This document shows, in pieces, positions 18,308 to 33,316 of a stretch of 64,000 nucleotides of DNA. The first letter of the stretch is position 1. The number at the start of each line of letters is the position of its first letter. Under the pieces are notes generated by a model. It did no database searches. It saw only the letters and a list, made by a program, of their open reading frames with translations, and was not told the origin of the DNA. The DNA comes from a phage, in sequence record PZ445451.1. One strand, written 5' to 3'. Position numbers and translations under genes: made by a program.

Positions 18308-18330
18308 TTCGTGTTTTTATAGGTGTGCGT

Positions 18331-18442: not shown

Positions 18443-18703
18443 AGAGAATAACGCGCAGGGGCGGTGTTTGTCTCGCGCTCCCGTGTCCCCTCGCCATACA
18501 ATAAGAATAGCATAACCAACAACAAAAGCAAGCGATTATTTTTATCTTTACATTTCTTTACAAATTTATTTTAGACGAGCTACCGGCGATCAACCTTCCA
18601 ACCAGTGCCCCCTGGTATGTTAGCCCCGCCTTTACGCCGTGGGGGTGGCGTTTCCTCTTCTGTATGTAAAACAGTATAAGCCCGATCCCTGGGCTTGTCA
18701 AGA

Positions 18704-18970: not shown

Positions 18971-19234
18971 GGTATCGCCCTTTCTTTGATGTGCGCCCTG
19001 GTTGGCGCGGTAGAAAGATAATAGCCGTTTCCTTTATAGATAGCAAGCAAAAAAGAAATGAAAAAAGATTAAAAATGGTTGACGTTACCAGGATAATAAC
19101 ATATTATTCATCTTGTCGAGGGGGGCAAGGCACAACGACAATAAATAAAAGGCGGGTGCAATGCAGGACGGGCAAAGGTGAGGATCTCCATAATCCACCG
19201 TCACAATAACATTACTTATAAAAGGTTGATAACG

Positions 19235-19330
19235 ATGATCAAGAAAGAAAACAGCTTGACGGTTGGAACGATTAACGCTATCATTCTAGCCGTTCCATTT
19301 TGGATTGTAGTAGCGGTTGTTATTTTCTAA
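19235..19330 (+). CDS. Small hydrophobic peptide (31 aa, MIKKENSLTVGTINAIILAVPFWIVVAVVIF)
   Basis: Manual ORF; single TM-like segment; weak SD. Confidence 0.3.
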   Translation: MIKKENSLTVGTINAIILAVPFWIVVAVVIF

Positions 19331-19339
19331 AAAATATTC

Positions 19340-19397
19340 TTGACAACGTTTTTTAATCTGATAAGATGTATCACATAGGGCGGCAATAGTGCCGCTC
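19340..19397 (+). promoter_or_regulatory. sigma70-like promoter (TTGACA/TAAGAT) plus conserved 5' leader hairpin (GGGCGGCAATAGTGCCGCTC)
   Basis: Seen directly upstream of gene 19420. Confidence 0.6.
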
Positions 19398-19419
19398 ATA
19401 ACAGAAGAGAGAAATAATC

Positions 19420-19692
19420 ATGGCATCATATAGCGCATCAATGATCGTAACGGGCATGACTGGTAAACCTATGCGCGGTGGCGGATCTTTCGCTAACATC
19501 AATATTGATGGGCGTTTATCCCTGGATGCAGCGATCACCGTGGCACGGGAAACATTTAAAAAAGAATGTAATTTCAATAAACAAGATTATCTCGGCTTCG
19601 TTATTGAAAAAACAGCGCGCTTTGTTGATTATAAAAGCCCGAAAATGATCGACACTACACTAAAAGCGCAAGATGTAGCATTTTTGCTTTAA
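19420..19692 (+). CDS. Hypothetical protein (90 aa)
   Basis: Track ORF preceded by promoter-hairpin-SD (AGAAGAGAG) unit. Confidence 0.55.
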   Translation: MASYSASMIVTGMTGKPMRGGGSFANINIDGRLSLDAAITVARETFKKECNFNKQDYLGFVIEKTARFVDYKSPKMIDTTLKAQDVAFLL

Positions 19693-19695
19693 GGC

Positions 19696-19755
19696 TTGAC
19701 ACTGAAAAATAATTTAGTAATATATACCACATAGGGCGGGAAATGGTTTCCCGCC
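19696..19755 (+). promoter_or_regulatory. sigma70-like promoter (TTGACA/TAATAT) plus conserved leader hairpin (GGGCGGGAAATGGTTTCCCGCC)
   Basis: Seen directly upstream of gene 19778. Confidence 0.6.
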
Positions 19756-19777
19756 AAATCAAAGAAAGGGTAACACA

Positions 19778-20140
19778 ATGAGCAAGCAAATCAATACTAT
19801 CATGTTAAACCTGGTATCTTTCCGCGATGACGTGAAAAATCTTTCGCGTGATGCAGTGGATGCACGGATCGAAAGCTATCGCACACAGATCGCAACATTA
19901 CCGTTAAAACGTGATCAACATGCCGCTAATATGATGCTTGGTGCTATGATTAAAAAGATGATTCAGTGTGATCTTACCCTGGCTTATGAATATGCTGGCG
20001 ATCTCTTTGTAACGTATAATAAGCCCGTTCCAGGTATGAGCACCACGGAAGAATTGCATGCCTTAAATTTGCGACAAGATGCATGGGATAACATGCGCCG
20101 TGTTATGGTATGGGCCGAAAGCGGTAAAATTTACGAATAA
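19778..20140 (+). CDS. Hypothetical protein (120 aa)
   Basis: Track ORF after promoter-hairpin unit. Confidence 0.55.
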   Translation: MSKQINTIMLNLVSFRDDVKNLSRDAVDARIESYRTQIATLPLKRDQHAANMMLGAMIKKMIQCDLTLAYEYAGDLFVTYNKPVPGMSTTEELHALNLRQDAWDNMRRVMVWAESGKIYE

Positions 20141-20146
20141 AAACGG

Positions 20147-20200
20147 TTGACATTGCACTAAAACCTGATAAGCTATCTTAAAGCGGGAATTGTTCCCGCT
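20147..20200 (+). promoter_or_regulatory. sigma70-like promoter (TTGACA) plus leader hairpin variant (AGCGGGAATTGTTCCCGCT)
   Basis: Seen directly upstream of small gene 20219. Confidence 0.55.
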
Positions 20201-20218
20201 TACATAGGATAAAACTTT

Positions 20219-20365
20219 ATGAAACAATATGTAATGAGTATCCACACCAAAAACGGCGCTACTGTTACGACTCCGGCACGGTTTGCACTTGTAAACCGTT
20301 GCAAGAGACTAAAACGAGAGTTAAAAAATAACCGTGCAACGGGCTTTAAACGCTGGGGAGGATAA
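20219..20365 (+). CDS. Small basic protein (48 aa, MKQYVMSIHTKNGATVTTPARFALVNRCKRLKRE..)
   Basis: Manual ORF below size cut-off; follows promoter-hairpin unit; stop 2 nt before next start. Confidence 0.4.
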   Translation: MKQYVMSIHTKNGATVTTPARFALVNRCKRLKRELKNNRATGFKRWGG

Positions 20366-20367
20366 TC

Positions 20368-20628
20368 TTGTTTTTTCTAAAAGTTTGTGATAATGTGATC
20401 GCTTTTGAACATGCTACAACGTTCGACCTGGCGAGATACGCTATCAGGTTTAAAGATAATGTTTATCCCCGTGCTGGCGGCGGTTACACTATTTTTAATC
20501 ACCGTAACGCTCAATTAACGGATATAACTAATCCAGATCCTGGAGTGTATCGGATAGGCTGGCTACCGTCAAAAGACGCTGCAAGCATGTTTAAGGTGTG
20601 TAAACTACTAACAGAAGAGGCGAACTAA
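20368..20628 (+). CDS. Hypothetical protein (86 aa), probable TTG start
   Basis: Track ORF; start codon TTG preceded by GGGGAGGA SD. Confidence 0.45.
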   Translation: MFFLKVCDNVIAFEHATTFDLARYAIRFKDNVYPRAGGGYTIFNHRNAQLTDITNPDPGVYRIGWLPSKDAASMFKVCKLLTEEAN

Positions 20629-20629
20629 C

Positions 20630-21184
20630 ATGGGGCGTGAATATGTGATCCAGTCCTGGGTAAAGCATGATGCTAATGATCCGCGCATAATACCAGATGA
20701 CATGATCGATCACATGGTAGGGTATAGCGGGGAGCAGATAGGAAATCGAGCGGCAAAGAGCAACGGCAACACCAGGACGCGATCCGTTCGTCCTGGATGG
20801 CTGGCGAATGGTAACGCTGACATTGCAAGCGCCGCAGATCCAAGCGATGACGCTAAAAATAATCCCTTGTACAGCATTGATCCGGCTTTTAAGGTGTTGG
20901 AAGAGTATCCCGCTAAATTAGCCGCACTAGATAAGGCATACGAAGAAAAGCGCATGGCCTGGACTGTATACAACACCGCTAAAATGGTGCTAGATGCAAA
21001 ACTAATTAAAGCCCAGGAGAAGATCAATAAACTTGTTACCATAGCGCAAGAGGAAGACCAGGGCGACCAGGAGGAAGAGGAAGAAATCATGCCTACCCTG
21101 GAAGAGGAAGAGATCCAGCCATACATGCCGACAGAAGAGGAAAAAAGACAAGCCCTAAAAAATTATGAAAATTGCATTGTGTAA
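20630..21184 (+). CDS. Hypothetical protein (184 aa) with acidic C-terminal tail
   Basis: Track ORF; C-terminus EEDQGDQEEEEEIMPTLEEEE. Confidence 0.55.
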   Translation: MGREYVIQSWVKHDANDPRIIPDDMIDHMVGYSGEQIGNRAAKSNGNTRTRSVRPGWLANGNADIASAADPSDDAKNNPLYSIDPAFKVLEEYPAKLAALDKAYEEKRMAWTVYNTAKMVLDAKLIKAQEKINKLVTIAQEEDQGDQEEEEEIMPTLEEEEIQPYMPTEEEKRQALKNYENCIV

Positions 21185-21187
21185 GGC

Positions 21188-21244
21188 TTGACATATGCAA
21201 ACAAGCCCCGTAATATGTACCACATAAAGCGGGGCAACGCCCCA
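21188..21244 (+). promoter_or_regulatory. sigma70-like promoter (TTGACA-N17-TAATAT) plus leader hairpin variant (GCGGGGCAACGCCCC)
   Basis: Seen directly. Confidence 0.55.
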
Positions 21245-21265
21245 TAAGGTGAAATAAAAAATCAC

Positions 21266-21293
21266 TTGACACCTGAAATCAGTAAGCTATAAT
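21266..21293 (+). promoter_or_regulatory. Near-consensus sigma70 promoter (TTGACA-N16-TATAAT), second of a tandem pair
   Basis: Seen directly, about 40 nt upstream of gene 21331. Confidence 0.6.
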
Positions 21294-21330
21294 GCTTATA
21301 TAGATTGAAACATTACTAAGGAATAAAAGC

Positions 21331-21510
21331 ATGGCTATTATTGCAAAGACTGAGATCGTAGGTTTAGATTCTATCATCCTGGCATATGAGGAAGCTATAG
21401 AAATGTATGTGGTTTCCTATGGTGATTATATCCGTGAATATAAATCTATTGATCTAGCTTTTGAATGCTATATTCGCCAGGTCAATAAAGCATATGATGA
21501 TTATCGTTAA
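21331..21510 (+). CDS. Small hypothetical protein (59 aa)
   Basis: Manual ORF just below size cut-off (MAIIAKTEIVGLDSIILAYEE..), downstream of tandem promoters. Confidence 0.45.
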   Translation: MAIIAKTEIVGLDSIILAYEEAIEMYVVSYGDYIREYKSIDLAFECYIRQVNKAYDDYR

Positions 21511-21529
21511 AAGTTTTAGTCTTGTGCTA

Positions 21530-21558
21530 TTGACAACGAACGATAGTACAAGCATAAT
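21530..21558 (+). promoter_or_regulatory. sigma70-like promoter (TTGACA-N17-CATAAT)
   Basis: Seen directly upstream of gene 21606; no leader hairpin in this copy. Confidence 0.5.
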
Positions 21559-21605
21559 AACTTTTATCGGGAATACTCCTAACTAATCAAAAGAGATTAA
21601 AGACT

Positions 21606-21971
21606 ATGGCTAAAAATATCAATGTTTCTGCTTATGCTACCCTGGCTAACACTGCTAAAATTGAACTATCCAGCATTGAAGCGGTACATATTAGCGCCCG
21701 TCGCTGGTTTCAAAAGTCTTATGGTAATACTTATTTCTCTTTGATGGTTGACGTTGAGATCGGCGGTAAACTGATCGAAGTAGTTAACGTTCCGTTTCAA
21801 TATGGTTATGGGGATCATTTTGATACCGTTGCCCTAGAAGAGTTTAGCAAGGTTATCAACCTGGAAGGTAAAGAGTTTTCAAATTATGCTTACCTTTCCC
21901 GCTTTTGCCGTGATAATGGGATCGCTGTATACAGTCATGCAAGCGATGTAAAACGTAAAAAAGATTTATAA
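21606..21971 (+). CDS. Hypothetical protein (121 aa)
   Basis: Track ORF. Confidence 0.55.
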   Translation: MAKNINVSAYATLANTAKIELSSIEAVHISARRWFQKSYGNTYFSLMVDVEIGGKLIEVVNVPFQYGYGDHFDTVALEEFSKVINLEGKEFSNYAYLSRFCRDNGIAVYSHASDVKRKKDL

Positions 21972-21977
21972 AAAGCA

Positions 21978-22036
21978 TTGACAGCACGAATAAAAAGCAT
22001 ATAATACTTATATCGAGAGCGGGAATAGTTCCCGCC
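21978..22036 (+). promoter_or_regulatory. sigma70-like promoter (TTGACA/TATAAT) plus leader hairpin (GCGGGAATAGTTCCCGC)
   Basis: Seen directly upstream of gene 22060. Confidence 0.6.
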
Positions 22037-22059
22037 TCACTGAAAAAGAGATTAACATC

Positions 22060-22299
22060 ATGGCTAAATCTAAAATGTACAACGGTCACAAAAATAAAAC
22101 TCATTGGAATGTAAGCCTTTGGATTAATAATGATGAATCGTTATACTTATACGCTGTAGGTTTAATAAATGAGTGCGGCAATAAAGATAAAGCGGCGGAT
22201 CTGATGTGCTACAGATTAAAACAGGATGGAATCACTCATACACCTGATGGTTTCAAGTATAGTAAAACTGCAATCCGTGCCGCTATGGTAGGAATGTAA
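22060..22299 (+). CDS. Hypothetical protein (79 aa)
   Basis: Track ORF after promoter-hairpin unit. Confidence 0.55.
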   Translation: MAKSKMYNGHKNKTHWNVSLWINNDESLYLYAVGLINECGNKDKAADLMCYRLKQDGITHTPDGFKYSKTAIRAAMVGM

Positions 22300-22308
22300 T
22301 AAAAGCAG

Positions 22309-22368
22309 TTGACAACGTTTTTTAATCTGGTATAGTTTATCGCATAGGGCGGGAAATGGTTTCCCGCC
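22309..22368 (+). promoter_or_regulatory. sigma70-like promoter (TTGACA/TATAGT) plus conserved leader hairpin (GGGCGGGAAATGGTTTCCCGCC)
   Basis: Seen directly; identical hairpin to 19734 copy. Confidence 0.6.
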
Positions 22369-22390
22369 AAATCAAAGAAAGGTTATCATT

Positions 22391-22618
22391 ATGGCTATCG
22401 TTATTGTTCGCGTATCCGGCACGGTTGGAATCTCCCAGGTAGTAGCAGTTATCACCGAGAAGAAAGGGGATGATCTTCACTCCTCATTGAATAGCTGGGC
22501 GGTCGCTAACTTTGGGCAATGGTCGAGCGTTGAGTACATCGAATCCTACCAGGTGCCAACGATTAGCCTGACCGATCTCAACGTTGATCGTCTGTTATGC
22601 CTGGATCAATTAAACTAA
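22391..22618 (+). CDS. Hypothetical protein (75 aa)
   Basis: Track ORF after promoter-hairpin unit. Confidence 0.55.
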   Translation: MAIVIVRVSGTVGISQVVAVITEKKGDDLHSSLNSWAVANFGQWSSVEYIESYQVPTISLTDLNVDRLLCLDQLN

Positions 22619-22626
22619 AAATAATA

Positions 22627-22684
22627 TTGACAAGACAACTAAAATTAGTAAAATGTAATTCATAGGGCGGCAATAGTGCCGCCC
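22627..22684 (+). promoter_or_regulatory. sigma70-like promoter (TTGACA/TAAAAT) plus leader hairpin (GGGCGGCAATAGTGCCGCCC)
   Basis: Seen directly; perfect 8-bp stem. Confidence 0.6.
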
Positions 22685-22705
22685 CTAGTAAGAGAGATTA
22701 TCAAA

Positions 22706-22921
22706 ATGGCTAATATCCGCACCTTGTTAAAAAATGCAAAGCAAGTTTTATTTTCAGATGACGAGTATTTCAACAAAGACATTACAGGCGTGAAAAATTT
22801 AAAAGACGTGAAGGATGTTATCGGTATCCGTGGATCTTTACGTAAAGGTGACATATACGGTAACAAGGTGCAATATAAACTGTCAAAAGATTATGATTTT
22901 ACTTTGACAATTATTTCATAA
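22706..22921 (+). CDS. Hypothetical protein (71 aa)
   Basis: Track ORF; start moved to MANIRT (ATG 22706) because the track start lies inside the leader hairpin. Confidence 0.55.
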   Translation: MANIRTLLKNAKQVLFSDDEYFNKDITGVKNLKDVKDVIGIRGSLRKGDIYGNKVQYKLSKDYDFTLTIIS

Positions 22922-22927
22922 AACTAC

Positions 22928-22988
22928 TTGTAAACCTGGTAAAATAAAGTAAACTATATTCATCAAGGCGGTGGAATAGCCCACCGCC
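22928..22988 (+). promoter_or_regulatory. Weak promoter-like sequence plus leader hairpin variant (GGCGGTGGAATAGCCCACCGCC)
   Basis: Seen directly; stem arms co-vary relative to other copies. Confidence 0.5.
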
Positions 22989-23012
22989 TAACAAAGAGAA
23001 GAGGAAAACATC

Positions 23013-23183
23013 ATGATCACTTTCACTACCCGTGAAGCCGCTCGCAACGTTGCACGTAAAGTTAACGCCGCCAACCTGGGCGCTACGCTTAAAGCCCCGG
23101 TGAAAGATGAATCAGGAAAATGGATCTTTCCTGGTCTGCGTCACGCTGATAAGCTGGGAACATTAACGTTAAAAAATAAATAA
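23013..23183 (+). CDS. Small hypothetical protein (56 aa, MITFTTREAARNVARKVNAANLGATLKAP..)
   Basis: Manual ORF below size cut-off; AGAGAAGAGG SD after hairpin. Confidence 0.45.
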   Translation: MITFTTREAARNVARKVNAANLGATLKAPVKDESGKWIFPGLRHADKLGTLTLKNK

Positions 23184-23190
23184 TATCCGC

Positions 23191-23249
23191 TTGACAGTAG
23201 CATCGTTTATAAGTAAAGTAACAACAACGGCGGGAAATGGTTTCCCGCC
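23191..23249 (+). promoter_or_regulatory. sigma70-like promoter (TTGACA/TAAAGT) plus leader hairpin (GGCGGGAAATGGTTTCCCGCC)
   Basis: Seen directly upstream of gene 23270. Confidence 0.6.
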
Positions 23250-23269
23250 ATCAATAAAGAGATAAGATT

Positions 23270-23629
23270 ATGAAATCAGTAAAAGCAATTAAAACTTACA
23301 TTGTGTCGGCTATTTCTTTTGATGGTACTACAACCGAAAAAGAAAAAATCACCGAACTGATGCGCCGTTTTAACTCTGAATACTGGTATCAATCTAATCG
23401 TGATCGTTATAATAACAATATGGTACAAGCTGTTAAAAGCTGGTTACAAGGTTTACCGTCAGATATCAATATCGCTTTTAATTATAACGAGATCGATCAA
23501 TTATTAATTGAATGGAAGTACATAAAAGAAACAAGCAAAGAAACAACCGTTACCCGTGAGCGGGAAAATTATTGGTTATATATTGCAAGCATGATCGTAA
23601 CTTTGGCAAAATATCATAACGTAGCGTAA
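23270..23629 (+). CDS. Hypothetical protein (119 aa)
   Basis: Track ORF after promoter-hairpin unit. Confidence 0.55.
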   Translation: MKSVKAIKTYIVSAISFDGTTTEKEKITELMRRFNSEYWYQSNRDRYNNNMVQAVKSWLQGLPSDINIAFNYNEIDQLLIEWKYIKETSKETTVTRERENYWLYIASMIVTLAKYHNVA

Positions 23630-23643
23630 TCGAGAGGAAAAAC

Positions 23644-23781
23644 ATGAACGCATCACAGCAGATCGAAAAATTCAACCGCAACAAAGCGAGTAAAGATTGG
23701 AACGAAGAGATCACCAAGAAAGGCGACAAGCGGAACAAAACAAAAAGAGATCGCAGCAGCAAAAGATACTGGAACGAATAA
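23644..23781 (+). CDS. Small basic protein (45 aa)
   Basis: Manual ORF; GAGAGGAAAAAC-ATG SD; followed directly by terminator. Confidence 0.4.
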   Translation: MNASQQIEKFNRNKASKDWNEEITKKGDKRNKTKRDRSSKRYWNE

Positions 23782-23782
23782 C

Positions 23783-23809
23783 AAAAAAGGGCGCAATAAG
23801 CGCCCTTTT
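23783..23809 (+). terminator. Rho-independent terminator (GGGCGC-AATAA-GCGCCC-TTTT)
   Basis: Seen directly. Confidence 0.65.
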
Positions 23810-23899
23810 AGCTTATATAGAGGCTTGTTGCTTATAGGCAAGGGTAACGCCAGGATAAGCCTATAAACCACGTTAGACGGCTTTACAGGAGCTTTAAAA

Positions 23900-24082
23900 A
23901 TGAAATTAGAGGAAATAAGCAAGGCACTAGCCCAGGGGCAAAGGTTATGCGCCCGATATCGTGATCAATATGGCTTCATAACTAGCGGCGTGATCCTGGG
24001 GATGGAAGGCAATAAGATTTTTATTGACACGTTGAAAAACGTTGTATATAGTGACAATATAATCTCAATAAAACATATATGA
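23900..24082 (+). CDS. Hypothetical protein (60 aa)
   Basis: Track ORF; GGAG SD. Confidence 0.45.
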   Translation: MKLEEISKALAQGQRLCARYRDQYGFITSGVILGMEGNKIFIDTLKNVVYSDNIISIKHI

Positions 24083-24090
24083 GGCAAGAA

Positions 24091-24492
24091 ATGAAAAAAT
24101 TATTGATCGCTGGTTTACTCTCTTTTGGCATGGTTGGAACATCTAGCGCGGCGATATCCTCCACAGTAGCAGAATTAAGCGCCGTTGATGCAATGGAAAA
24201 CGTCATGATCATTAATAATGCGATCCCCGATGAAATCATGGAGGATTCACACATGATCGCTTATGGTGCTGTTACACAACTAACGGCAAAAATAGATAAA
24301 TCTATTGTTAATGGCTTAAATGAAGATGTACCATGTGAAATTATTACCAGTGTGCTCACTACTCAAAATTTTACGCCGTGGCTAAAAAGTATTCAAAAAG
24401 TACACAGTACAGCCGCAGATCGTAGCAATGAAAAACTAGTGTCAGCACTTGCAACGTATACCCTAGCAAAATGCACCGAAATAAAAGATTGA
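24091..24492 (+). CDS. Putative secreted protein (133 aa)
   Basis: Track ORF; start moved to MKKLLIAGLLSFGMVGTSSA (signal-peptide-like) with GAGG SD. Confidence 0.55.
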   Translation: MKKLLIAGLLSFGMVGTSSAAISSTVAELSAVDAMENVMIINNAIPDEIMEDSHMIAYGAVTQLTAKIDKSIVNGLNEDVPCEIITSVLTTQNFTPWLKSIQKVHSTAADRSNEKLVSALATYTLAKCTEIKD

Positions 24493-24517
24493 CAACATAG
24501 AAAGCACGTTATAAGAT
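24489..24517 (+). promoter_or_regulatory. sigma70-like promoter (TTGACA-N17-TAAGAT)
   Basis: Seen directly; -35 overlaps stop of upstream gene. Confidence 0.5.
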
Positions 24518-24539
24518 ACACACAACAAAGGAGAACTAC

Positions 24540-24842
24540 ATGAACGGCATAGCTAAAACGTTTTTTCTTTTTTCTGGTGTAAATGATCCATCAATAAAAG
24601 TCGATAGCGTAAAAGAAAACAATACTATCACCGCTAAATTGTTTCAAGATGAAACAAATAACGTGCTAATCATTAATCTTAAAGAAATAACAAAAGGTTA
24701 TTATACTATTGCTTACCATGCGATCTATAATGCTGGTACTAGTGAGGAAGTGCAAACAAGCAACAACGAAAGCGCGGCGCTACCTGGTGATCTGGTGCTG
24801 GGCGTTATCAGTTTAATTGTCAATGATTTTTTTAAGGAGTAA
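24540..24842 (+). CDS. Hypothetical protein (100 aa)
   Basis: Track ORF; AAAGGAG SD. Confidence 0.5.
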   Translation: MNGIAKTFFLFSGVNDPSIKVDSVKENNTITAKLFQDETNNVLIINLKEITKGYYTIAYHAIYNAGTSEEVQTSNNESAALPGDLVLGVISLIVNDFFKE

Positions 24843-25100
24843 AACCATGCCCTATTTACATTTATTTTTCGGTATCTTATTGACAGGATCTTTTTTCTTC
24901 TGTATGCTTGTTTCTATTGTAAACCACGTTTTAAAACATTAAGGAAACAGCATGAAAATTATTCCCGTACAGTATAGCGTAATAAATCCAGCATATGAGG
25001 AAGGAAGGAAAACAAGCATGGCTTTATGTTGTATTGCTACTATAGCCATGTTATTATACACTGTGTTTTAATAGGTTTTATAGTTGTACGCTTTAAAGGC

Positions 25101-25153
25101 TTGACAATTTTTTGTTATGCTTTAAAATATATCTTGAAAACGGCAAAGGCCGC
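25101..25153 (+). promoter_or_regulatory. sigma70-like promoter (TTGACA/TAAAAT) plus short leader hairpin (CGGCAAAGGCCG)
   Basis: Seen directly upstream of gene 25172. Confidence 0.5.
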
Positions 25154-25171
25154 AAACAAAAGGGTAAAATT

Positions 25172-25495
25172 ATGAAATCTGTGATCGGTGTTTATTTGGA
25201 TAATTCTGATTTTTTCTATCATCGCGCTCGTTTCCTTGATGCTATTGATATGATAGAATCAGGCTTTAAAGAATACCGCCTTGCACATGATGACCTGGAA
25301 GCATTACAGGGCAATAGTGTTTTTACATTGCAAGCGAAAGCACTATGTAAAAGCCGGATCGACATTGCGAGCAAAAAGATAGAACGCGGCATGTCCTGGT
25401 TGCGCACCGCAGAAATCAACATGGGGCAATGGTACGGCAAAAACTTAGAAAATAAACATACCTTTGTCAATGTAGAAAATATTGAAGATTATTGA
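25172..25495 (+). CDS. Hypothetical protein (107 aa)
   Basis: Track ORF; start moved to MKSVIGVY downstream of the promoter. Confidence 0.55.
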   Translation: MKSVIGVYLDNSDFFYHRARFLDAIDMIESGFKEYRLAHDDLEALQGNSVFTLQAKALCKSRIDIASKKIERGMSWLRTAEINMGQWYGKNLENKHTFVNVENIEDY

Positions 25496-25558
25496 TTGAC
25501 AGCACATCTAACGAGTAGTATATTGTATCTCATAGAGCGGGGAAATGGTTTCCCCGCC
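25496..25558 (+). promoter_or_regulatory. sigma70-like promoter (TTGACA-N17-TATATT) plus leader hairpin (GCGGGGAAATGGTTTCCCCGC)
   Basis: Seen directly; stem lengthened by one compensated G-C pair. Confidence 0.6.
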
Positions 25559-25577
25559 TTAAAAGAAGAGATAAGCT

Positions 25578-25862
25578 ATGAAGATCACAAAAGCACTTTC
25601 CAACTATGCAGCACGTCGCGGATTATGCTTATCCGTTGAAAACTTAGGGAAAGAAGATTTTTTGTGTTTTTGGGAGCTTGAAAATGAAAGTGAATGGTTG
25701 TTCTCTTATTCTATCTGCGAAGATCAAAACGGTTGTTTGTTAACCTGGCGCGGTAATATCTATCTACCGGAAGAAATCAAAGAAGAATTGCCAGGCACGA
25801 TCATGACTGAGAAACAGCTTAAGGAAGTGATTAATTTTGTAGGGCAAAACATTAAAAAATAA
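25578..25862 (+). CDS. Hypothetical protein (94 aa)
   Basis: Track ORF after promoter-hairpin unit. Confidence 0.55.
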   Translation: MKITKALSNYAARRGLCLSVENLGKEDFLCFWELENESEWLFSYSICEDQNGCLLTWRGNIYLPEEIKEELPGTIMTEKQLKEVINFVGQNIKK

Positions 25863-25863
25863 T

Positions 25864-25922
25864 TTGACACTAGGCAAACAACGTAGTAAAGTTTATCACA
25901 TAGGGCGGCAATAGTGCCGCTC
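25864..25922 (+). promoter_or_regulatory. sigma70-like promoter (TTGACA-N17-TAAAGT) plus leader hairpin (GGGCGGCAATAGTGCCGCTC)
   Basis: Seen directly; same hairpin variant as 19379. Confidence 0.6.
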
Positions 25923-25943
25923 ATAACAGAAGAGAAACAAATC

Positions 25944-26114
25944 ATGATCCCGACTATGTTTTATGTATCGCGCAAAGGTCACAATATTTTTTGGTCTGAA
26001 GATTTAAATGAAGCCATGACGTTTGCCCGTGATCGTGTTGCTATCGGTGGCGTTAACATTACTGTAACCGATGAAAACGGCATTGAATACTATAACGGCG
26101 ACGATGAAGAGTAA
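25944..26114 (+). CDS. Hypothetical protein (56 aa)
   Basis: Track ORF; start moved to MIPTMFYV because the track start lies in the hairpin. Confidence 0.5.
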   Translation: MIPTMFYVSRKGHNIFWSEDLNEAMTFARDRVAIGGVNITVTDENGIEYYNGDDEE

Positions 26115-26121
26115 TTAATAA

Positions 26122-26142
26122 GGCGGGGGAGTATTCCCCGCC
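26122..26142 (+). promoter_or_regulatory. Leader-type hairpin (GGCGGGGGAGTATTCCCCGCC) without an upstream promoter
   Basis: Seen directly between genes 25944 and 26162. Confidence 0.5.
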
Positions 26143-26161
26143 GTCAATAAAGAGGTAAATC

Positions 26162-26431
26162 ATGAAAATATCTTTGGACGTTGCAATCAAGGCCATCGAA
26201 TCCGGTTACACCCTGGTAAAAGATGATAAGGCTAAAATAGTGCATCATGTTAACAAGGAAACAGGCGAAAGCATGATCACATATAAAGCCGCCTACTTTC
26301 TCCAATCAGTAGCAGATCCGCGCGTACAACGCCAGGTTACAGCGGCTATTGCTAAAAAATTATGTGCTTTACAGGGCACAAGTTTTAACGAGATCGCCCC
26401 GTGTTTTGACTGGTCGAGCTTGAAAAAATAG
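26162..26431 (+). CDS. Hypothetical protein (89 aa)
   Basis: Track ORF; AAAGAGG SD after hairpin. Confidence 0.55.
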   Translation: MKISLDVAIKAIESGYTLVKDDKAKIVHHVNKETGESMITYKAAYFLQSVADPRVQRQVTAAIAKKLCALQGTSFNEIAPCFDWSSLKK

Positions 26432-26432
26432 T

Positions 26433-26494
26433 TTGACAATATGCTGTTATCTGGTAAAGTGTACGACATAGGGCGAGGCAATAAGGCAACGCCC
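26433..26494 (+). promoter_or_regulatory. sigma70-like promoter (TTGACA/TAAAGT) plus divergent leader hairpin (GGGCGAGGCAATAAGGCAACGCCC)
   Basis: Seen directly. Confidence 0.5.
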
Positions 26495-26513
26495 ATTAAT
26501 GAGGGGTAGAATC

Positions 26514-26618
26514 ATGTTAGAGAAAATTTTCACGGTTGTAATAGTGGGCCTGGCGTTATCGGTTGGATTGGTTGCAACTATGGCTAACATGATCCTATCT
26601 TCCCACGGTATTGGATAA
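26514..26618 (+). CDS. Small hydrophobic peptide (34 aa, MLEKIFTVVIVGLALSVGLVATMANMILSSHGIG)
   Basis: Manual ORF; GAGGGG SD; first ORF after the promoter-hairpin unit. Confidence 0.3.
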   Translation: MLEKIFTVVIVGLALSVGLVATMANMILSSHGIG

Positions 26619-26628
26619 GGTGAATCAA

Positions 26629-26844
26629 ATGATCACGAATAAGACAGGTAAAACAGAATTTTTACGCAGCTTGCAAATAGGTAAACCTGAGATCTGGCAT
26701 TGCACTAAATCCGCGCATAATGAAATGAAAGATTTTACCGCTACTTTACAACGTGTTAAAATATCTATCACACAGAAAAAAGCCTTGTTAGTAGTAGAAA
26801 ACGAGATCCCGCAAACCATTATTATTGTCGAGCGTACAGCATGA
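26629..26844 (+). CDS. Hypothetical protein (71 aa)
   Basis: Track ORF; start moved to MITNKTGK (AAGGTGA SD). Confidence 0.5.
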   Translation: MITNKTGKTEFLRSLQIGKPEIWHCTKSAHNEMKDFTATLQRVKISITQKKALLVVENEIPQTIIIVERTA

Positions 26845-27227
26845 AAACTGAAATCATTAACGAAATGATCAACGGCTATAAAGAAGCCTTTATTTTTGCC
26901 GAACCAGCGACGGATCACAATGGGGAATATATTGAGAATCTAGACGATTATGATTTTTCTCCTAGCGCCCTGAAACGTATTACCAGCGATGTGACCGCCT
27001 TTTGTAGTGCCAATGTTGCCGCTATCTCTGAGGCAATGAGCGACGGCGCTACAGCAAACCAGATCGGGAATGATTTACATTTTACCCGTAACGGTCACGG
27101 CGTAGGTTTTTGGGATCGCCCTGAAATATACACTACTAACACCGCCAACCGTTTAACTGATGCAGCTAAATTAATGCCATTGGTGCATGCTTACATTGGT
27201 GAAGATAATTTGATTTATATTGACTAA
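26841..27227 (+). CDS. Hypothetical protein (128 aa)
   Basis: Track ORF; ATGA overlap with upstream gene. Confidence 0.55.
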   Translation: MKTEIINEMINGYKEAFIFAEPATDHNGEYIENLDDYDFSPSALKRITSDVTAFCSANVAAISEAMSDGATANQIGNDLHFTRNGHGVGFWDRPEIYTTNTANRLTDAAKLMPLVHAYIGEDNLIYID

Positions 27228-27232
27228 AAGTG

Positions 27233-27291
27233 TTGACACCGATCCCCAATATGTTATTATTTACCACGTAAGCGGGAAATGGTTTCCCGCC
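27233..27291 (+). promoter_or_regulatory. sigma70-like promoter (TTGACA/TATTAT) plus leader hairpin (GCGGGAAATGGTTTCCCGC)
   Basis: Seen directly. Confidence 0.6.
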
Positions 27292-27314
27292 AGGTAATCA
27301 AAAAGGTAAATACT

Positions 27315-27704
27315 ATGCGCAACCTGGTTTCTGTTTCTAACGTTGAAAAATTTCAATCTTTACAGGGTATCGTTAACAACGTAGCGCCTTTTTTAGTCAA
27401 CGGCTTGATTGCAAAGATGAAAAATAAACATCATGCGGCATGGTCTGCTTACTGCTTTGATAATGATGAAAAAGCGGCTGAAATGATGCTAAATATGCTG
27501 TTAGACAGTGTAGAATCATCTTTACCGGAAAACATCGCAGAAGAGATCACCTATCGTTATAATATGGCGATCACTTACCAGGAGGTTGCGCAATTTAATA
27601 TGATGGACGATGACGAACAACAGGATCAGGAAATGTTTTGGGAGTATGCTGATCGTCAATCGGCTTTTGATGAAAAATTAGCGATGTATTATAACGAATA
27701 TTAA
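27315..27704 (+). CDS. Hypothetical protein (129 aa)
   Basis: Track ORF; start moved to MRNLVSVS downstream of hairpin. Confidence 0.55.
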   Translation: MRNLVSVSNVEKFQSLQGIVNNVAPFLVNGLIAKMKNKHHAAWSAYCFDNDEKAAEMMLNMLLDSVESSLPENIAEEITYRYNMAITYQEVAQFNMMDDDEQQDQEMFWEYADRQSAFDEKLAMYYNEY

Positions 27705-27714
27705 TACACGGTAA

Positions 27715-27745
27715 AAGAAAGGGGCGCACTAAGCGCCCTTTTTTG
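27715..27745 (+). terminator. Rho-independent terminator (GGGGCGC-ACTAA-GCGCCC-TTTTTT)
   Basis: Seen directly. Confidence 0.7.
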
Positions 27746-28089
27746 TATTCTTTTTTCACGATGGAAACAACACGTAAAGAATAGGCGTAAAGGTGGCGTA
27801 AAACCATCTAAAACCGACTGTAACCGCTTAAACAAGGTAGGAATGATTAATCACCTTACCAGGGTGAAAAAGCTGTTATAAAGCTACCTAGAGCGTTTAA
27901 AGCACATAGGGAATAATTTGCTTTTTATCTTGCCTTTTATCCTGCTTTTGATTATTATTATGGAACGGGCGGCACCTGGGGACAGGGGAAGATAATCACC
28001 GGAAGATCCCGCTATATATTGATAGCTAATACCTATTAAACAACAAAACATCAAAGGAATAAACTATCAAATCTTTACAATCCTACCTA

Positions 28090-28150
28090 TTGACACAGGA
28101 TCACCCTTATACTAATATGTATCCCGTAGGGCGGGAAATGGTTTCCCGCT
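28090..28150 (+). promoter_or_regulatory. sigma70-like promoter (TTGACA-N17-TAATAT) plus leader hairpin (GGGCGGGAAATGGTTTCCCGCT)
   Basis: Seen directly. Confidence 0.6.
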
Positions 28151-28861: not shown

Positions 28862-28876
28862 ATAACATTTCACACC

Positions 28877-28903
28877 AGGGCGCACAAAGCGCCCTTTCTT
28901 TTT
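28877..28903 (+). terminator. Rho-independent terminator (AGGGCGC-ACAAA-GCGCCCT-TTCTTTTT)
   Basis: Seen directly; ends the small-gene array. Confidence 0.7.
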
Positions 28904-29106
28904 ACCTAAATAAAGATGATAGCTTTTACCTATCAAAAACGTTCACCGAAAAAAGTGAATAGATCGCGGTATCGAGCTAATCAAGGAGCAGATGAACAAC
29001 CATACCATGAAGATCATAAGGCGCTTACAACGTGTTTTAGACCGCTTATTTTTAATTTCTCAATGTAACTATCGGGCAAAAACAGCCTTTTTCTTGTCTT
29101 TCCTCT

Positions 29107-29184
29107 TAAATGATAATCATTCTTATTTATAGCTGATTATTTATGCAATAAACTGCATAATGCAATAATGATAATCATTCTTAA
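29107..29184. promoter_or_regulatory. Two Fur-box-like sites (AAATGATAATCATTCTTA; ATAATGATAATCATTCTTA)
   Basis: Seen directly; second copy matches 16 of 18 positions of Fur consensus ATAATGATAATCATTATC. Confidence 0.55.
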
Positions 29185-29542
29185 CTTATGACCATCTAAC
29201 CTATAAAATAATAAGTTATCTAACTAAATTAAAACTAATTATCCCACCTTTATTTATAACTTACTTTTACTATCTCATTGATAACCTTATATTAAACAAC
29301 AATAACCAATATAAATCATTACTAAGCTAACTATAATCTATCTAACCCTTAAAACTATAACTATAATCTATCGAATTGTTGCACAAAGTAACTATTAAAT
29401 TGTTAGTAACTTTACTAAATAATTAATATCCTATCTATTTATGATCTAATCTTTACCTTACTATCTATTACCTAAATAACCATTTCATACAGAAATTATT
29501 TCATACAATAACTATAACAAGAAATATAATTCGCAAGCGTAT

Positions 29543-29703
29543 CATTAGCAGCCTATGCCGGACACATAGGCGGCTAATAATAACGCAACTACACACCCCA
29601 CATAATAACCATCACCGATAGTTATTATTTGTGCTTATGTAGCTTGCAACAATTGCAAGCGCAACAATATACATGGTATATTGTATCCCTTACATTGTTG
29701 CGG
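29543..29703. repeat. Cluster of nested inverted repeats (13-bp stem ATTAGCAGCCTATG/CATAGGCGGCTAAT; CTTGCAACAATTGCAAG; CGCAACAAT...ATTGTTGCG enclosing ATATAC-ATG-GTATAT)
   Basis: Seen directly in the 1.8-kb non-coding region. Confidence 0.6.
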
Positions 29704-30042
29704 TGCGTTATTATTAGCTAATGTTTGGAACATTGGCTATAATATAAGCTACATATAATAAGCTATACAATAATAAACATAATGAATAATGACACTGATG
29801 ATCATAATGCGCCACCTTCCAGGGGGCGCTATGTGAACACAAAGAAATCTTTCTTGTCAAGAAAAATATCACCATTATTGCGCAAAATTATTTATATCTG
29901 AACAGATGATTTTTCATACTATTGCCCCCTATAGTATCCCTATTTGTTGTAATGTATTCCCCTATTTGTTGAGCCTACTCTCTTAAAAGCGCAATAAATT
30001 AGAATTATCTTGATTTTTAGGTAGTTTTATAGTATAGAAAAT

Positions 30043-30066
30043 ATGCAAATGATAATCATTATCAGC
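30043..30066. promoter_or_regulatory. Fur-box-like site (GCAAATGATAATCATTATC)
   Basis: Seen directly; AATGATAATCATTATC is a 16/16 match to the 3' part of the Fur consensus. Confidence 0.6.
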
Positions 30067-30229
30067 TATCTTCCACAGGTGGCACTATTTCACGCCAGAT
30101 CATTTCATTTGGCAAGGTGTATATAGATGTTTAGAAATGCCAAGCCATTGATTTACTTAGAATTTATCTGTTTTGTTGTGAGTAGTGCCTTTCTTGCTCA
30201 GAAAATAATCAAAAGTCTTATAAGTCATT

Positions 30230-30264
30230 GAATGATAATGCAAATGATAATTATTCTCATTGAT
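30230..30264. promoter_or_regulatory. Fur-box-like site (GAATGATAATGCAAATGATAATTATTCTCATT)
   Basis: Seen directly. Confidence 0.5.
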
Positions 30265-30378
30265 ATTTGAGGGGGACGGTCGGCAGAAATCGGGGGCGCT
30301 AAAAATCGCGTTAAGCACCTCTCGCAAGCGAGCAGTATTTTGCGGCAAGTTATTGATATTATTGGCTTTACGCTTATG

Positions 30379-30485
30379 GAAAGGGGGTGTGTCGAAATAA
30401 ATCGGGTATACCGGAAAATTTTTGTGGCATAGATATTTATTTGTCTATATTATGTACAAAGGGGTGTGTTAAAAATAATAGGTAT
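30379..30485. repeat. Two copies of AAAGGGGTGTGT..AAATAA..GGTATA motif about 73 bp apart
   Basis: Seen directly; third partial copy at ~17919. Confidence 0.45.
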
Positions 30486-30717
30486 ATATAGAATAATTGA
30501 TAGGGAAATCCTATACTAATCCCTCCATTAATGATGTTCCTAGGTTGCTGTTCTTGTAACAGATGAAAAGACGCTGTATGATGTGTGGCATGAGACGTAA
30601 ATTTATAAGATGCAAATAATGCTTGCATTGAATAGAAATGTCTGTATAGTGGTTTGCATACCGCGCACGACGCGTTTCCATTTTCAATAAAATGTTAGCA
30701 TTATGGGGAGGTAGAAA

Positions 30718-33148: not shown

Positions 33149-33316
33149 ATGGGTGTCCCTGAACAACTGCTCTTTATTGTAGGATTAGTAGGCTTATTGG
33201 CGGCTGGCGCTAAAGCCGCTTCTCACACGCATCACATAATGTTAAGATTTCTATTCCTGCTCCCTTCTATCCTCGTACTACTAGTCATACTGATCGATAA
33301 CATTTTGCATAATTAA
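33149..33316 (+). CDS. Small membrane protein (55 aa)
   Basis: Manual ORF (MGVPEQLLFIVGLVGLLAAGAKAASH..); two hydrophobic helices. Confidence 0.35.
   Translation: MGVPEQLLFIVGLVGLLAAGAKAASHTHHIMLRFLFLLPSILVLLVILIDNILHN

Follow-up and report, generated by a model that had tools for sequence, protein, structure and literature searches.

Eight small hydrophobic reading frames of the phi92-like coliphage PaulScherrer: apparently unrelated and mostly genuine genes for predicted membrane peptides

The short open reading frame (ORF) at positions 26514-26618 of the window, that is, of the whole 64,000-nucleotide stretch of phage DNA analysed here, is one of eight that the original prediction grouped as a family of unannotated, single-helix hydrophobic peptides, and it raises the question of whether frames of this size are genes, whether they are related to one another and what their products may do. 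The window corresponds to Escherichia phage PaulScherrer (Bas60, MZ501100.1), a phi92-like member of the genus Justusliebigvirus. All eight ORFs, here c1 to c8 in order of position, exist where they were proposed, give or take a few bases; the stop of c7 is at 41922, not 41921, and c1 (10980-11126) and c8 (44344-44466) lie on the minus strand. They are largely not unannotated: six are CDSs labeled “hypothetical protein” in MZ501100.1 (bas60_0096, 0114, 0131, 0137, 0179, and 0188), only c4 (24952-25071) and c7 (41848-41922) are missing from that record, and the annotation of phi92 covers three of the eight (gp211, gp032, and gp042). As six of the frames were already annotated as hypothetical proteins, the finding is largely an ordinary one. 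We conclude that the eight frames are mostly real small membrane-protein genes.

The peptides do not behave as a family. Each of the 28 pairwise local alignments was compared with 300 shuffles, and the sole outlier was a short patch, VV[VI]GYF, shared by c6 and c7 (local alignment z = 4.3; tblastn cross-match E = 4.7); relatedness of these two was rejected, the similarity being judged compositional. A PHROG profile search placed the eight in different PHROGs or in none, with no family in common, and by sequence comparison they appear to be mutually unrelated. The description as single-helix hydrophobic peptides holds with two exceptions. On simple hydropathy scales, on which all membrane-insertion calls made here rest, c1, c2, c3, c4, c5, c7, and c8 reach the transmembrane threshold (a 19-residue Kyte-Doolittle window of at least 1.6, with an apolar run of ~17-19 residues or more), c1 with two segments in place of one, and c6 falls short of it with a maximum of 1.17. 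The predicted tight packing against neighboring genes, with a start or stop within 4 nt, is found for five: c1 (overlapping the downstream gene by ATGA and lying 0 nt from the upstream stop), c3 (start 4 nt past the upstream stop), c6 (0 nt from the upstream stop), c7 (TAGATG junction with the upstream gene), and c8 (TAATG overlap with the stop of a Dcm methyltransferase gene, the next gene being 1 nt away). The ribosome-binding sites are strong for c3 (TAAGGAG, 7 nt, at -7), c4 (TAAGGA at -6), and c6 (AAGGAG at -6), of 4 nt for c1, c2, and c5, and weak for c7 (GAG) and c8. The comparison was based on GenBank phages, as IMG/VR had only three close relatives; c5 is broken in 2 of 21 phages. We consider c2, c4, c5, and c6 well supported, and all four have relatives outside the genus; support is good for c1 and c8 and fair for c7, and c3 is doubtful.

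The focal ORF, c5 (26514-26618, plus strand), encodes a predicted single-pass peptide of 34 aa with the layout MLEK-[TM]-SSHGIG, and corresponds to bas60_0137, phrog_14631, and FV3_00160. In the GenBank record bas60_0137 begins at 26499, giving a 39-aa form. In 18 of 20 relatives that upstream ATG is not in frame with c5, and the 34-position profile of phrog_14631 aligns over its full length (1-34) with residues 6-39 of the longer form (E = 1.7e-22); the start should be moved from 26499 to 26514. The ORF is found in three genera, Justusliebigvirus, Phapecoctavirus, and Vequintavirus, and is 91-94% identical in the latter two. Its 14 synonymous and 13 nonsynonymous changes are distributed 7/4/16 over the three codon positions (P = 0.011, against P~0.97 in the other frames). 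Most nonsynonymous changes exchange V, I, L, M, A, and T conservatively within the apolar core, the three exceptions being E3D, L19W, and a nonsense change; no change falls in the polar C-terminal end, and E3D is the only one in the N-terminal end. Two small-xxx-small packing motifs, G12xxxS16 and A14xxxG18, are present. The frame is broken in KKP_3264 (+T, in a homopolymer) and DrSchubert (TCG>TAG), from which it follows that c5 is dispensable. Upstream lies a sigma-70-type promoter (26433-26460, plus strand; TTGACA-16-TAAAGT with a TG extension), one of ~18 perfect TTGACA promoters that occupy the 19.3-28.1 kb region, about one to each spacer, and it is followed directly by a 5′ stem-loop at 26471-26494. 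The peptide gave no match to holin, toxin, or exclusion families. In the CRISPRi-ART paper the c5-bearing phage EdH4 was used only for capsid and rII targets.

The remaining plus-strand ORFs of the promoter-rich region differ in their evidence. The 31-aa c2 (19235-19330; bas60_0114) has a polar N-terminal part, IKKENSLTVG, followed by a C-terminal predicted transmembrane segment. Homologues occur in 114 phage records, at 84-90% amino acid identity in Phapecoctavirus and 52-55% in Klebsiella Stephanstirmvirinae (gene_42 of 05F01); all are intact, with lengths of 31-39 aa and C-termini that vary, and phage SD2 is without c2. Its 18 synonymous and 14 nonsynonymous changes compare with 9.4 synonymous changes expected (P = 0.0009). 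The 31-aa c3 (24847-24942; bas60_0131) is intact in 56 of 56 genus records with zero indels, and no homologues were found outside the genus. Its coding potential (-0.108) lies within the null distribution, with a noncoding-like composition, and it has accumulated 2 synonymous and 4 nonsynonymous changes. A promoter-like TTGACA-17-TATGCT lies inside it (24880-24908), 44 nt 5′ of the c4 ATG, and the slot taken as a spacer would be 109 nt long, which is typical of the region; c3 may be merely a promoter spacer ahead of c4.

The case of c4 (24952-25071, plus strand, 39 aa) bears on the published annotation. It belongs to phrog_10979 (“membrane protein”), whose 39-position profile it matches over positions 6-38 (E = 3.3e-8), and has as homologues phAPEC8_004, Rosemountvirus KE24 CDS0070, and GAP32. 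Its predicted layout is tail-anchored, with a conserved N-terminal motif, V-[EQ]-Y-[ST]-V-x-N-P-A-x-x-E-G-[RK], common to the relatives and placed before the C-terminal transmembrane segment, and the frame is intact in 13 of 13 loci. The GenBank record carries instead bas60_0132 (25026-25175, plus strand, 49 aa), which overlaps c4, lacks a usable Shine-Dalgarno sequence (AGGA at -16), contains a promoter (TTGACA-16-TAAAAT, 25101-25128), and has no match among the PHROG profiles. In relatives it is frameshifted (L003) or begins with GTG (A145), with 5 synonymous and 9 nonsynonymous changes. It is probably a mis-call, and the annotation should be changed from bas60_0132 to c4.

Two further plus-strand ORFs lie in a tightly packed operon beside the genome end. 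The 34-aa c6 (40594-40698; bas60_0179, Phi92_gp032) has 14 apolar residues at its N-terminus and then a charged amphipathic helix, and it matches the phrog_11666 profile with E = 2e-11. It is found in 132 records, at 57-60% identity in Phapecoctavirus and 42% in Klebsiella phages, and the order of a ~200-aa gene, c6, and a 57-aa zinc-finger gene is conserved in ESCO5 and KP13-26. Its coding potential is 0.458; we regard it as a real small protein, whose association with the membrane is uncertain; identification as a PncF immunity protein was rejected on account of a weak NCBIfam match (18 bits against a cut-off of 45). The 24-aa c7 (41848-41922) is annotated nowhere and is the final ORF ahead of a bidirectional terminator (41926-41955). 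It is absent from a collection of 15 billion proteins and from Phapecoctavirus ESCO5. Its relatives, compared by local alignments, show an intact frame in 12 of 12 genus loci and zero changes at codon position 2, and its coding potential (0.187) is in the top 0.7% of the null.

The two minus-strand ORFs are located within DNA-metabolism operons. The 48-aa c1 (10980-11126; bas60_0096, Phi92_gp211) has two hydrophobic segments, predicted to form a helical hairpin, and matches the phrog_27111 profile with E = 1e-35. Confined to the genus, it is present at full length in all 56 Justusliebigvirus records, with a coding potential of 0.130 bits/codon (top 1% of the null) and only 5 synonymous and 5 nonsynonymous variable sites. 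Its removal would leave a gap of 143 nt, the largest in the operon, where the median is 3 nt. The 40-aa c8 (44344-44466; bas60_0188, Phi92_gp042) is a Trp-rich predicted transmembrane peptide, found at full length in all 55 genus records, the start codon varying only between ATG and GTG. The annotated start of bas60_0188 is an ATA codon at 44469 and should be moved to 44466. Without c8, two genes of an operon whose median gap is 6 nt would be left 123 nt apart. Its coding potential is only 0.002, and its translation initiation region is predicted to be buried (unpaired probability 0.16), as expected if translation is coupled to the upstream gene.

The most general objection to this assignment is that some or all of the eight are chance ORFs, AT-rich DNA yielding T-rich, hydrophobic-looking frames in inter-gene stretches that stay open by luck or through promoter and terminator constraint on the DNA. 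Hydrophobicity by itself is indeed cheap evidence in this genome of 37% GC, since 13% of spurious 20-60 aa ORFs inside long genes (n = 522) are likewise transmembrane-like. Shuffling the slots yields an ORF of matching size in 15-50% of cases for c2, c3/c4, and c5, and in at most 1% for c1, c7, and c8, which fill their slots exactly. The chance reading is further favored by the null-like coding potential of c3 and the usual distance of its internal promoter-like site from the next start, by the typical spacers (109 and 100 nt) that a gene model with c4 alone leaves, by the GenBank ORF 25026-25175, an instance of just such an artefact, and by the mere 24 codons and genus restriction of c7. Against it stand the conservation of c2, c4, c5, and c6 as proteins across genera and the statistics of the class. 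Slot-filling and the gap statistics of the operons also favor c1, c6, and c8. The eight candidates carry 4.6 indels per kb, three of the four located at stop codons, compared with 3.4 in CDSs and 29 in spacers, the last value being inflated by two large noncoding regions; pooled changes are synonymous in 36 of 72 cases against 21.6 expected (P = 1.5e-4). For the genus-restricted c1, c3, c7, and c8 the pooled substitution test, a weak one, gives P = 0.045. A Shine-Dalgarno match of at least 4 nt is found in 89% of true genes and 17% of spurious ORFs; the 6-7 nt of c3, c4, and c6 are reached by 1.5% of spurious ORFs, and the 7 nt of c3 by only 0.4%. Coding potential exceeds the null for c1, c2, c4, c6, and c7 and is merely average for c5 and c8. 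As a class, the eight ORFs resemble coding DNA in their indel and synonymous patterns, and what lies above chance is the combination of slot-filling, Shine-Dalgarno or coupling signals, conservation, and substitution and indel pattern. A chance origin is credible for c3 and less credible for c7 but is not credible for the eight as a set, and overall we regard it as unlikely.

Two other explanations bear on particular members or on function. The main role of the c5 region could be that of an RNA, serving the downstream genes at 26629-27704 as a structured 5′ leader, a site of processing, or a stabilizing element, and the ORF could be incidental or solely a regulatory upstream ORF. A predicted mRNA hairpin (26503-26601, plus strand; MFE -50.8 kcal/mol, z = -2.16) pairs the c5 Shine-Dalgarno sequence and AUG with codons 23-30, leaving the region -14 to +6 with an unpaired probability of 0.17, below all 92 long genes; the ribosome-binding site is predicted to be unusually buried. 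The outer helix is predicted independently in FV3, WPEC1, and phAPEC8, paired cells make up 99.4% over 21 sequences, the arms are near-invariant in three genera, and all 8 one-sided changes preserve pairing. The stem-loop just past the promoter, and the two phages in which the frame is broken though the DNA is conserved, point the same way. Compensatory changes, however, are absent from the 21 sequences, and, as no pair varies on both sides, a pair-count shuffle control was uninformative. An apparent extra conservation of third codon positions in paired parts (p = 0.01) vanished with a single-sequence fold (p = 0.27) and is an artefact of a structure derived from the same alignment. The codon-periodic substitutions, with a synonymous excess in frame 0 only, the mostly conservative replacements, and the invariant polar C-terminal end also argue against an RNA role, as does the retention of c5 in phi92 despite replacement of both flanks, SD2 and three others having exchanged the downstream gene only. 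We judge both the RNA role and the incidental or regulatory status of the ORF improbable. The other explanation, that the peptides are holins, antiholins, or holin modulators of the lysis system, draws on the small transmembrane proteins typical of lysis cassettes and on a “putative holin” that is annotated in phage EduardKellenberger at ~3 kb from its c5 homologue. It is very improbable: none of the eight lies near the endolysin gene (53606-54106), the closest, c8, being 9 kb away; the small ORF beside the endolysin (54119-54262) is basic, not hydrophobic; Pfam and PHROGs gave no holin match at E ≤ 1; and the host-type promoters ahead of c2 to c5, probably early, suggest an unexpected timing for lysis genes. 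A holin linkage of c2 was also considered and rejected: the 120-aa membrane protein near c2 shows no relationship to the protein upstream of the Klebsiella c2 homologue, nor to FV3_00169.

The explanation that we prefer, and consider probable, is that these are eight unrelated small genes, mostly for membrane proteins, of a phi92-like lytic coliphage. From three observations, namely the anatomy of the ORFs, their conservation, and substitutions and indels patterned as in coding DNA, we infer that at least six, and probably seven, would be translated into mini-proteins. The predicted topologies are single-pass for c2, c5, c7, and c8, and for c3 if real, tail-anchored for c4, and a two-helix hairpin for c1. 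Translation of c2, c3, c4, c5, and c6 would be driven by their own Shine-Dalgarno sites, and that of c1, c6, c7, and c8 by termination-reinitiation coupling to the upstream gene. In the c2-c5 region nearly every gene has its own host-type promoter, suggesting early expression. Once inserted in the membrane, the peptides may bind proteins of the host envelope or interfere with them, or prevent superinfection, in accessory roles that are individually dispensable; the breakage of c5 and the absence of c2 from SD2 and of c7 from ESCO5 are signs of dispensability. The roles originally put forward (holin modulator, superinfection exclusion, inhibition of host membrane complexes) are generic possibilities. 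None of the eight matched holin, toxin, exclusion, or defence families in Pfam, PHROGs, NCBIfam, and PADLOC, and guilt by association gave no lead, every neighbor being an unknown-function PHROG without a Pfam match. The literature searched contained no transcriptome or ribosome-profiling study of the phage subfamily.

Several known systems offer comparisons. Closest are the PHROG families phrog_14631 (c5), phrog_10979 (c4), phrog_27111 (c1), and phrog_11666 (c6), which give full-length HMM matches that agree in length and architecture and have members annotated in rV5-like, phAPEC8-like, and Rosemountvirus phages. They are bioinformatic clusters, and the “membrane protein, moron/host takeover” label of phrog_10979 is a prediction. 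AcrZ, MgrB, MgtS, KdpF, and CydX are small membrane proteins by which bacteria regulate larger membrane complexes. The peptides resemble them in size (24-50 aa), in having one apolar helix with short polar ends and, for c5, in the small-xxx-small packing motifs, but are phage-encoded and share no sequence similarity with them in NCBIfam or Pfam. HK97 gp15 and P22 SieA are superinfection-exclusion or envelope proteins of phages. T4 Imm and Spackle likewise are phage superinfection-exclusion and early envelope proteins (PMC7677548). With all four, the peptides would share a small size, an envelope location (here predicted), and dispensability for growth, and c2 to c5 lie behind probably early promoters; most known examples are larger (80-160 aa), and no similarity to Imm, Sp, SieA, or gp15-like proteins was detected in Pfam, PHROGs, NCBIfam, and PADLOC.

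Hok, TisB, Ldr, and Ibs are toxins of type I toxin-antitoxin systems. c5 is comparable to them as a short hydrophobic peptide with a Shine-Dalgarno sequence and AUG that may be masked by long-range pairing in the predicted mRNA fold, here without covariation; unlike them, it sits in a lytic-phage transcription unit and not in a stability module. No antisense RNA was identified for c5, the opposite strand having generic promoter-like sites only, and there was no Rfam match in the window and no NCBIfam toxin match. It is conceivable, though slightly less likely even than the RNA role above, that c5 is a mobile early cassette of ribosome-binding site, 34-aa membrane peptide and, in most phages, promoter, exchanged among three rV5/phi92-like genera and gated in translation by a hairpin that buries its own Shine-Dalgarno sequence and AUG, as in type I toxins. 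If so, the peptide would be dose-sensitive and potentially toxic, exerting its effect on the inner membrane of the host during take-over. Genome annotations under-represent small phage proteins, many of which target host machinery (PMC11323111). The eight ORFs do not reveal a new kind of system; their use is in cleaning up the genome annotation, with c7 as a candidate gene and c3 as a doubtful one, and in the conservation of c2, c4, c5, and c6 outside the genus, with c5 as the best knock-out or expression target within the BASEL collection.

The sequence examined belongs to Escherichia phage PaulScherrer (Bas60, MZ501100.1; Justusliebigvirus, Stephanstirmvirinae), which megablast matches at 100% identity, record positions being window positions plus 64675. 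About 50 close relatives are 95-97% identical to the window by megablast, and parts of the region are also carried by Phapecoctavirus and Vequintavirus. Coding annotation covers 90% of the window, and neither tRNA genes nor Rfam matches were found in it. The labels of records MG065645.1, OK210077.1 and PQ110661.1 include "Campylobacter phage A145/A150/A110a" and "Serratia phage KKP_3264"; as these records share 95-96% identity with E. coli Justusliebigvirus genomes, the hosts assigned to them are questionable. We also noticed that vB_EcoM_ZYD has the synteny of Justusliebigvirus, yet is filed under Vequintavirus.

All eight short frames of the original prediction (c1 to c8) are present in the window; as a whole, the observation was confirmed in part and its interpretation supported in part. 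They had been called unannotated, whereas six are already GenBank CDSs labelled "hypothetical protein" (bas60_0096, 0114, 0131, 0137, 0179, 0188) and three of the eight are in the annotation of phage phi92 (gp211, gp032, gp042). Only c4 (24952-25071, plus strand, 39 aa) and c7 (41848-41922, plus strand, 24 aa; its end had been placed one base too early) are without annotation, the place of c4 being taken in the record by an overlapping frame at 25026-25175 (bas60_0132). Small hydrophobic ORFs of this kind are ordinary for a large lytic phage genome, and databases already contain most of them.

The description of the products as hydrophobic single helices fits most of them, seven of eight reaching the transmembrane threshold of at least 1.6 in a 19-residue Kyte-Doolittle window. 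The exception is c6 (40594-40698, plus strand, 34 aa), which reaches 1.17 and has an apolar N-terminus of 14 residues followed by a charged amphipathic stretch; membrane status for it is possible, if somewhat doubtful. The product of c1 (10980-11126, minus strand, 48 aa) has two apolar segments with Ser-Val-Lys between them, and is thus predicted to form a hairpin and not a single helix. Hydrophobicity alone is not beyond chance: 13% of 522 spurious ORFs of 20-60 aa inside long genes are transmembrane-like, and the transmembrane-like share of annotated CDSs grows with smaller size, from 1/36 (>150 aa) through 6/55 (81-150 aa) and 6/37 (51-80 aa) to 6/18 (≤50 aa). Two strongly hydrophobic annotated proteins absent from the original list, a 57-aa Phi92_gp219 homologue (14095-14268, plus strand; phrog_22950) and a 55-aa protein (33149-33316, plus strand), have two apolar segments each, and other tiny transmembrane ORFs occur in relatives (phAPEC8_015, KP13-26_00065).

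Plausible ribosome-binding sites had been claimed for all. Shine-Dalgarno (SD) matches of at least 4 nt (89% of long genes vs 17% of spurious ORFs) are found for c1 to c6: 7 nt in c3 (24847-24942, plus strand, 31 aa), 6 nt in c4 and c6, a length reached by only 1.5% of spurious ORFs, and 4 nt in c1, c2 (19235-19330, plus strand, 31 aa) and c5 (26514-26618, plus strand, 34 aa). The matches of c7 and c8 (44344-44466, minus strand, 40 aa) are weak. The proposal that many are translationally coupled, read as start or stop junctions near neighbours, holds for five of the eight: c1 abuts an upstream stop and has an ATGA overlap downstream, c3 starts 4 nt past the preceding stop, c6 and c7 start immediately after a stop, and c8, besides a TAATG overlap, leaves 1 nt between its end and the next start. 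When the slots are shuffled, ORFs as long as those observed arise in 15-50% of trials for c2, c3/c4 and c5, in 7.6% for c6, and in at most 1% for c1, c7 and c8. The median intergenic gap is 1-6 nt in the two minus-strand clusters and the left-hand plus-strand operon, and deleting c1, c8 or c6 from the model leaves the largest gap of its own operon (143, 123 and 155 nt, respectively). In the 19-29 kb region nearly every gene has a perfect TTGACA promoter of its own, and spacers have a median length of 78 nt. At 19340-28118 (plus strand) about 18 perfect TTGACA -35 boxes are accompanied by good -10 boxes, which amounts to roughly one for each intergenic spacer, and almost every small gene there appears to form a separate transcription unit for host RNA polymerase.

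Syntenic DNA was compared across twelve Justusliebigvirus genomes or contigs and Phapecoctavirus, Vequintavirus, Klebsiella and Rosemountvirus phages. Of the frames, c1, c3 and c8 are full length in all 55-56 genus records, c7 is intact at 12/12 loci, and c5 is broken in two of 21 sequences, those of KKP_3264 and DrSchubert. Indels in the candidates (4.6/kb) are near the CDS rate (3.4/kb); the spacer rate of 29/kb, which two large noncoding regions inflate, would give 25 in place of the four found (P<1e-4), three of which lie at stop codons. Pooled variable sites are synonymous in 36/72 cases, with 21.6 expected from the observed mutation types (P=1.5e-4). A three-periodic Markov score for coding potential, calibrated on 92 long genes and compared with 459 spurious ORFs, places c1, c2, c6 and c7 in the top 1.3% or better, c4 at 3.7%, c5 and c8 at 5-8%, and c3 within the null (25%).

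The highest score of the eight is that of c6, which occurs in 132 records and keeps its gene order (a ~200-aa gene, c6, a 57-aa zinc-finger gene) in Phapecoctavirus and Klebsiella phages; it is almost certainly a real gene. The same is very probable for c2, found in 114 records, Phapecoctavirus and Klebsiella phages among them, with 18 synonymous and 14 nonsynonymous changes (P=0.0009), a retained "IKKENSLTVG...PF" motif and a variable C-terminus giving 31-39 aa. The genus-restricted c1, c3 and c8 are too little diverged for individual tests; pooled with c7, they give P=0.045 in the substitution test. We regard c1 as a gene with good confidence and c8 as probably one. For c7, codon position 2 is unchanged across the 12 loci and Phapecoctavirus ESCO5 lacks the frame; the balance tilts slightly towards a gene. 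It is the one new candidate, of 24 codons.

At the c4 locus, bas60_0132 (25026-25175, plus strand) is probably a spurious mis-call and the overlapping c4 appears to be the real, unannotated gene, because bas60_0132 has no usable SD and no PHROG match, spans a TTGACA-16-TAAAAT promoter (25101-25128) serving the next gene and is frameshifted in one relative, while c4 stops before that promoter. A match of c4 to phrog_10979 ("membrane protein") at 3e-8 and a V-[EQ]-Y-[ST]-V-x-N-P-A-x-x-E-G-[RK] motif with a C-terminal apolar tail, common to c4, phAPEC8_004 and a Rosemountvirus gene, are also found, and we consider c4 very likely a gene; jumbo phage GAP32, with a weak tblastn match (E=0.08), was left out of the alignment. 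The status of c3 is ambiguous, with a real gene slightly disfavoured. In its favour are the 7-nt SD, the lack of indels and a frame intact genus-wide; against it stand the poor coding potential, 2 synonymous and 4 nonsynonymous changes, and no relatives found beyond the genus. It contains a TTGACA-17-TATGCT sequence 44 nt ahead of the c4 start, the usual promoter-to-gene spacing in the 19-29 kb region, and a model with c4 only leaves spacers of 109 and 100 nt, typical for that region.

The focal ORF, c5, stands out as a conserved, mobile and dispensable peptide cassette with a host-type promoter upstream and an unusually occluded predicted start site. It lies downstream of a TTGACA-16-TAAAGT promoter with TG extension, and the next gene follows after 10 nt. 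The ATG at 26514 is where the PHROG profile and every homologue begin; the annotated ATG of bas60_0137 (26499) is out of frame in 18/20 relatives, because a G run differs by one base, so the predicted coordinates are better than those of GenBank. The annotated start of c8 (bas60_0188), an ATA codon at 44467-44469 next to an ATG at 44466, looks wrong as well; the annotation would thus be corrected by shifting both starts and by replacing bas60_0132 with c4.

In an alignment of 21 c5 sequences from three genera, the 27 variable sites comprise 14 synonymous and 13 nonsynonymous ones, distributed 7/4/16 over codon positions (P=0.011; P~0.97 in the other two frames). Amino-acid changes are mostly V, I, L, M, A and T swaps in the apolar core, except for E3D, L19W and one nonsense change; at the ends, E3D is the sole change in MLEK, and ATMANMILSSHGIG does not vary. 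Phage phi92 keeps c5 between different sequences on both sides, with breakpoints just upstream of the SD and directly after the stop, and SD2 and three other relatives have only the downstream replacement in common with it; c5 thus behaves as a discrete cassette. The frame is broken in KKP_3264 by a +1 frameshift (+T at codon 5, within an A/T homopolymer, ~22790 of the fetched sequence), which may be a sequencing error, and in Vequintavirus DrSchubert (frame at 445-549 of the fetched sequence) by TCG>TAG at codon 16; the DrSchubert record annotates a different 48-aa frame there. It is therefore dispensable, at least in those phages, and the two alleles would count against strong selection. We hold c5 to be a gene with good confidence. 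A conserved GC-rich stem-loop (GGGCG...CGCCC; 26471-26494, plus strand), a few bases past the point where transcription of the c5 unit is predicted to begin, could stabilise the mRNA at its 5' end; phi92, its upstream sequence replaced there, lacks it.

The c5 mRNA is predicted to form a long hairpin (26503-26601; MFE -50.8 kcal/mol, z=-2.16) in which SD and AUG (26503-26520) pair with codons 23-30, the outer helix being predicted independently in FV3, WPEC1 and phAPEC8. Positions -14 to +6 have a predicted unpaired probability of 0.17, lower than in any of the 92 long genes (mean 0.48) or the 150 sampled spurious ORFs. Gated, low-level translation of c5, the first gene on its transcript, would be a minority reading of this fold, with a possible likeness to type I toxins; as a rival, the hairpin could reflect an RNA-level role of the region. 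Across the 21 sequences 99.4% of cells are still paired and eight one-sided changes preserve pairing, but no compensatory change occurs, so that covariation gives no proof. Third positions in paired parts seemed to be extra conserved (p=0.01), but this was gone once the structure came from outside the alignment (p=0.27). The c8 start region (44400-44470, minus strand) is predicted to be equally buried (0.16, also below all 92 long genes), as expected for a gene translated by coupling to the upstream methyltransferase.

The eight peptides had been called a family; by sequence comparison they are best described as a class. All-against-all local alignments with shuffle controls gave no relationship save one c6/c7 patch, "VV[VI]GYF" (z=4.3 among 28 tests; tblastn E-value 4.7), and c1 to c8 fall in different PHROGs or none. 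No peptide could be linked with any known system: no matches came from Pfam, NCBIfam or PADLOC, PHROG matches and neighbours alike belong to families without assigned function, and none of the ORFs lies near the endolysin. An attempted holin link for c2 failed, and the literature searched yielded neither expression nor fitness data for the subfamily. The best-supported statement is the generic one that the products are accessory small proteins, mostly membrane-anchored, a kind whose abundance in phages is now recognised (review PMC11323111, citing Fremin et al. 2022); they are probably dispensable individually, and host envelope proteins or superinfecting phages are their plausible targets. 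Directly upstream of the endolysin lies a basic, non-hydrophobic 47-aa protein (54119-54262, minus strand; phrog_14981), and no obvious holin or spanin adjoins the endolysin in the window.

Between diverging gene clusters, 1.3 kb (17891-19234) are almost without credible ORFs and carry a 67-bp tandem repeat in two copies (18105-18235) and a 29-bp repeat in 2.1 copies (18337-18398), a repeat there being overlapped by the tiny annotated CDS bas60_0112; this could be an origin or regulatory region. Another 1.85 kb (28862-30717), with two dubious tiny annotated CDSs only, corresponds in position to the direct terminal repeats that form the physical ends of the phi92 genome and lie between gp248 and gp001. 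The UvrD/Rep helicase gene (3618-6392, minus strand) contains an intein annotated at 4590-5630; in phage alia this gene is intein-less and 1737 nt long.
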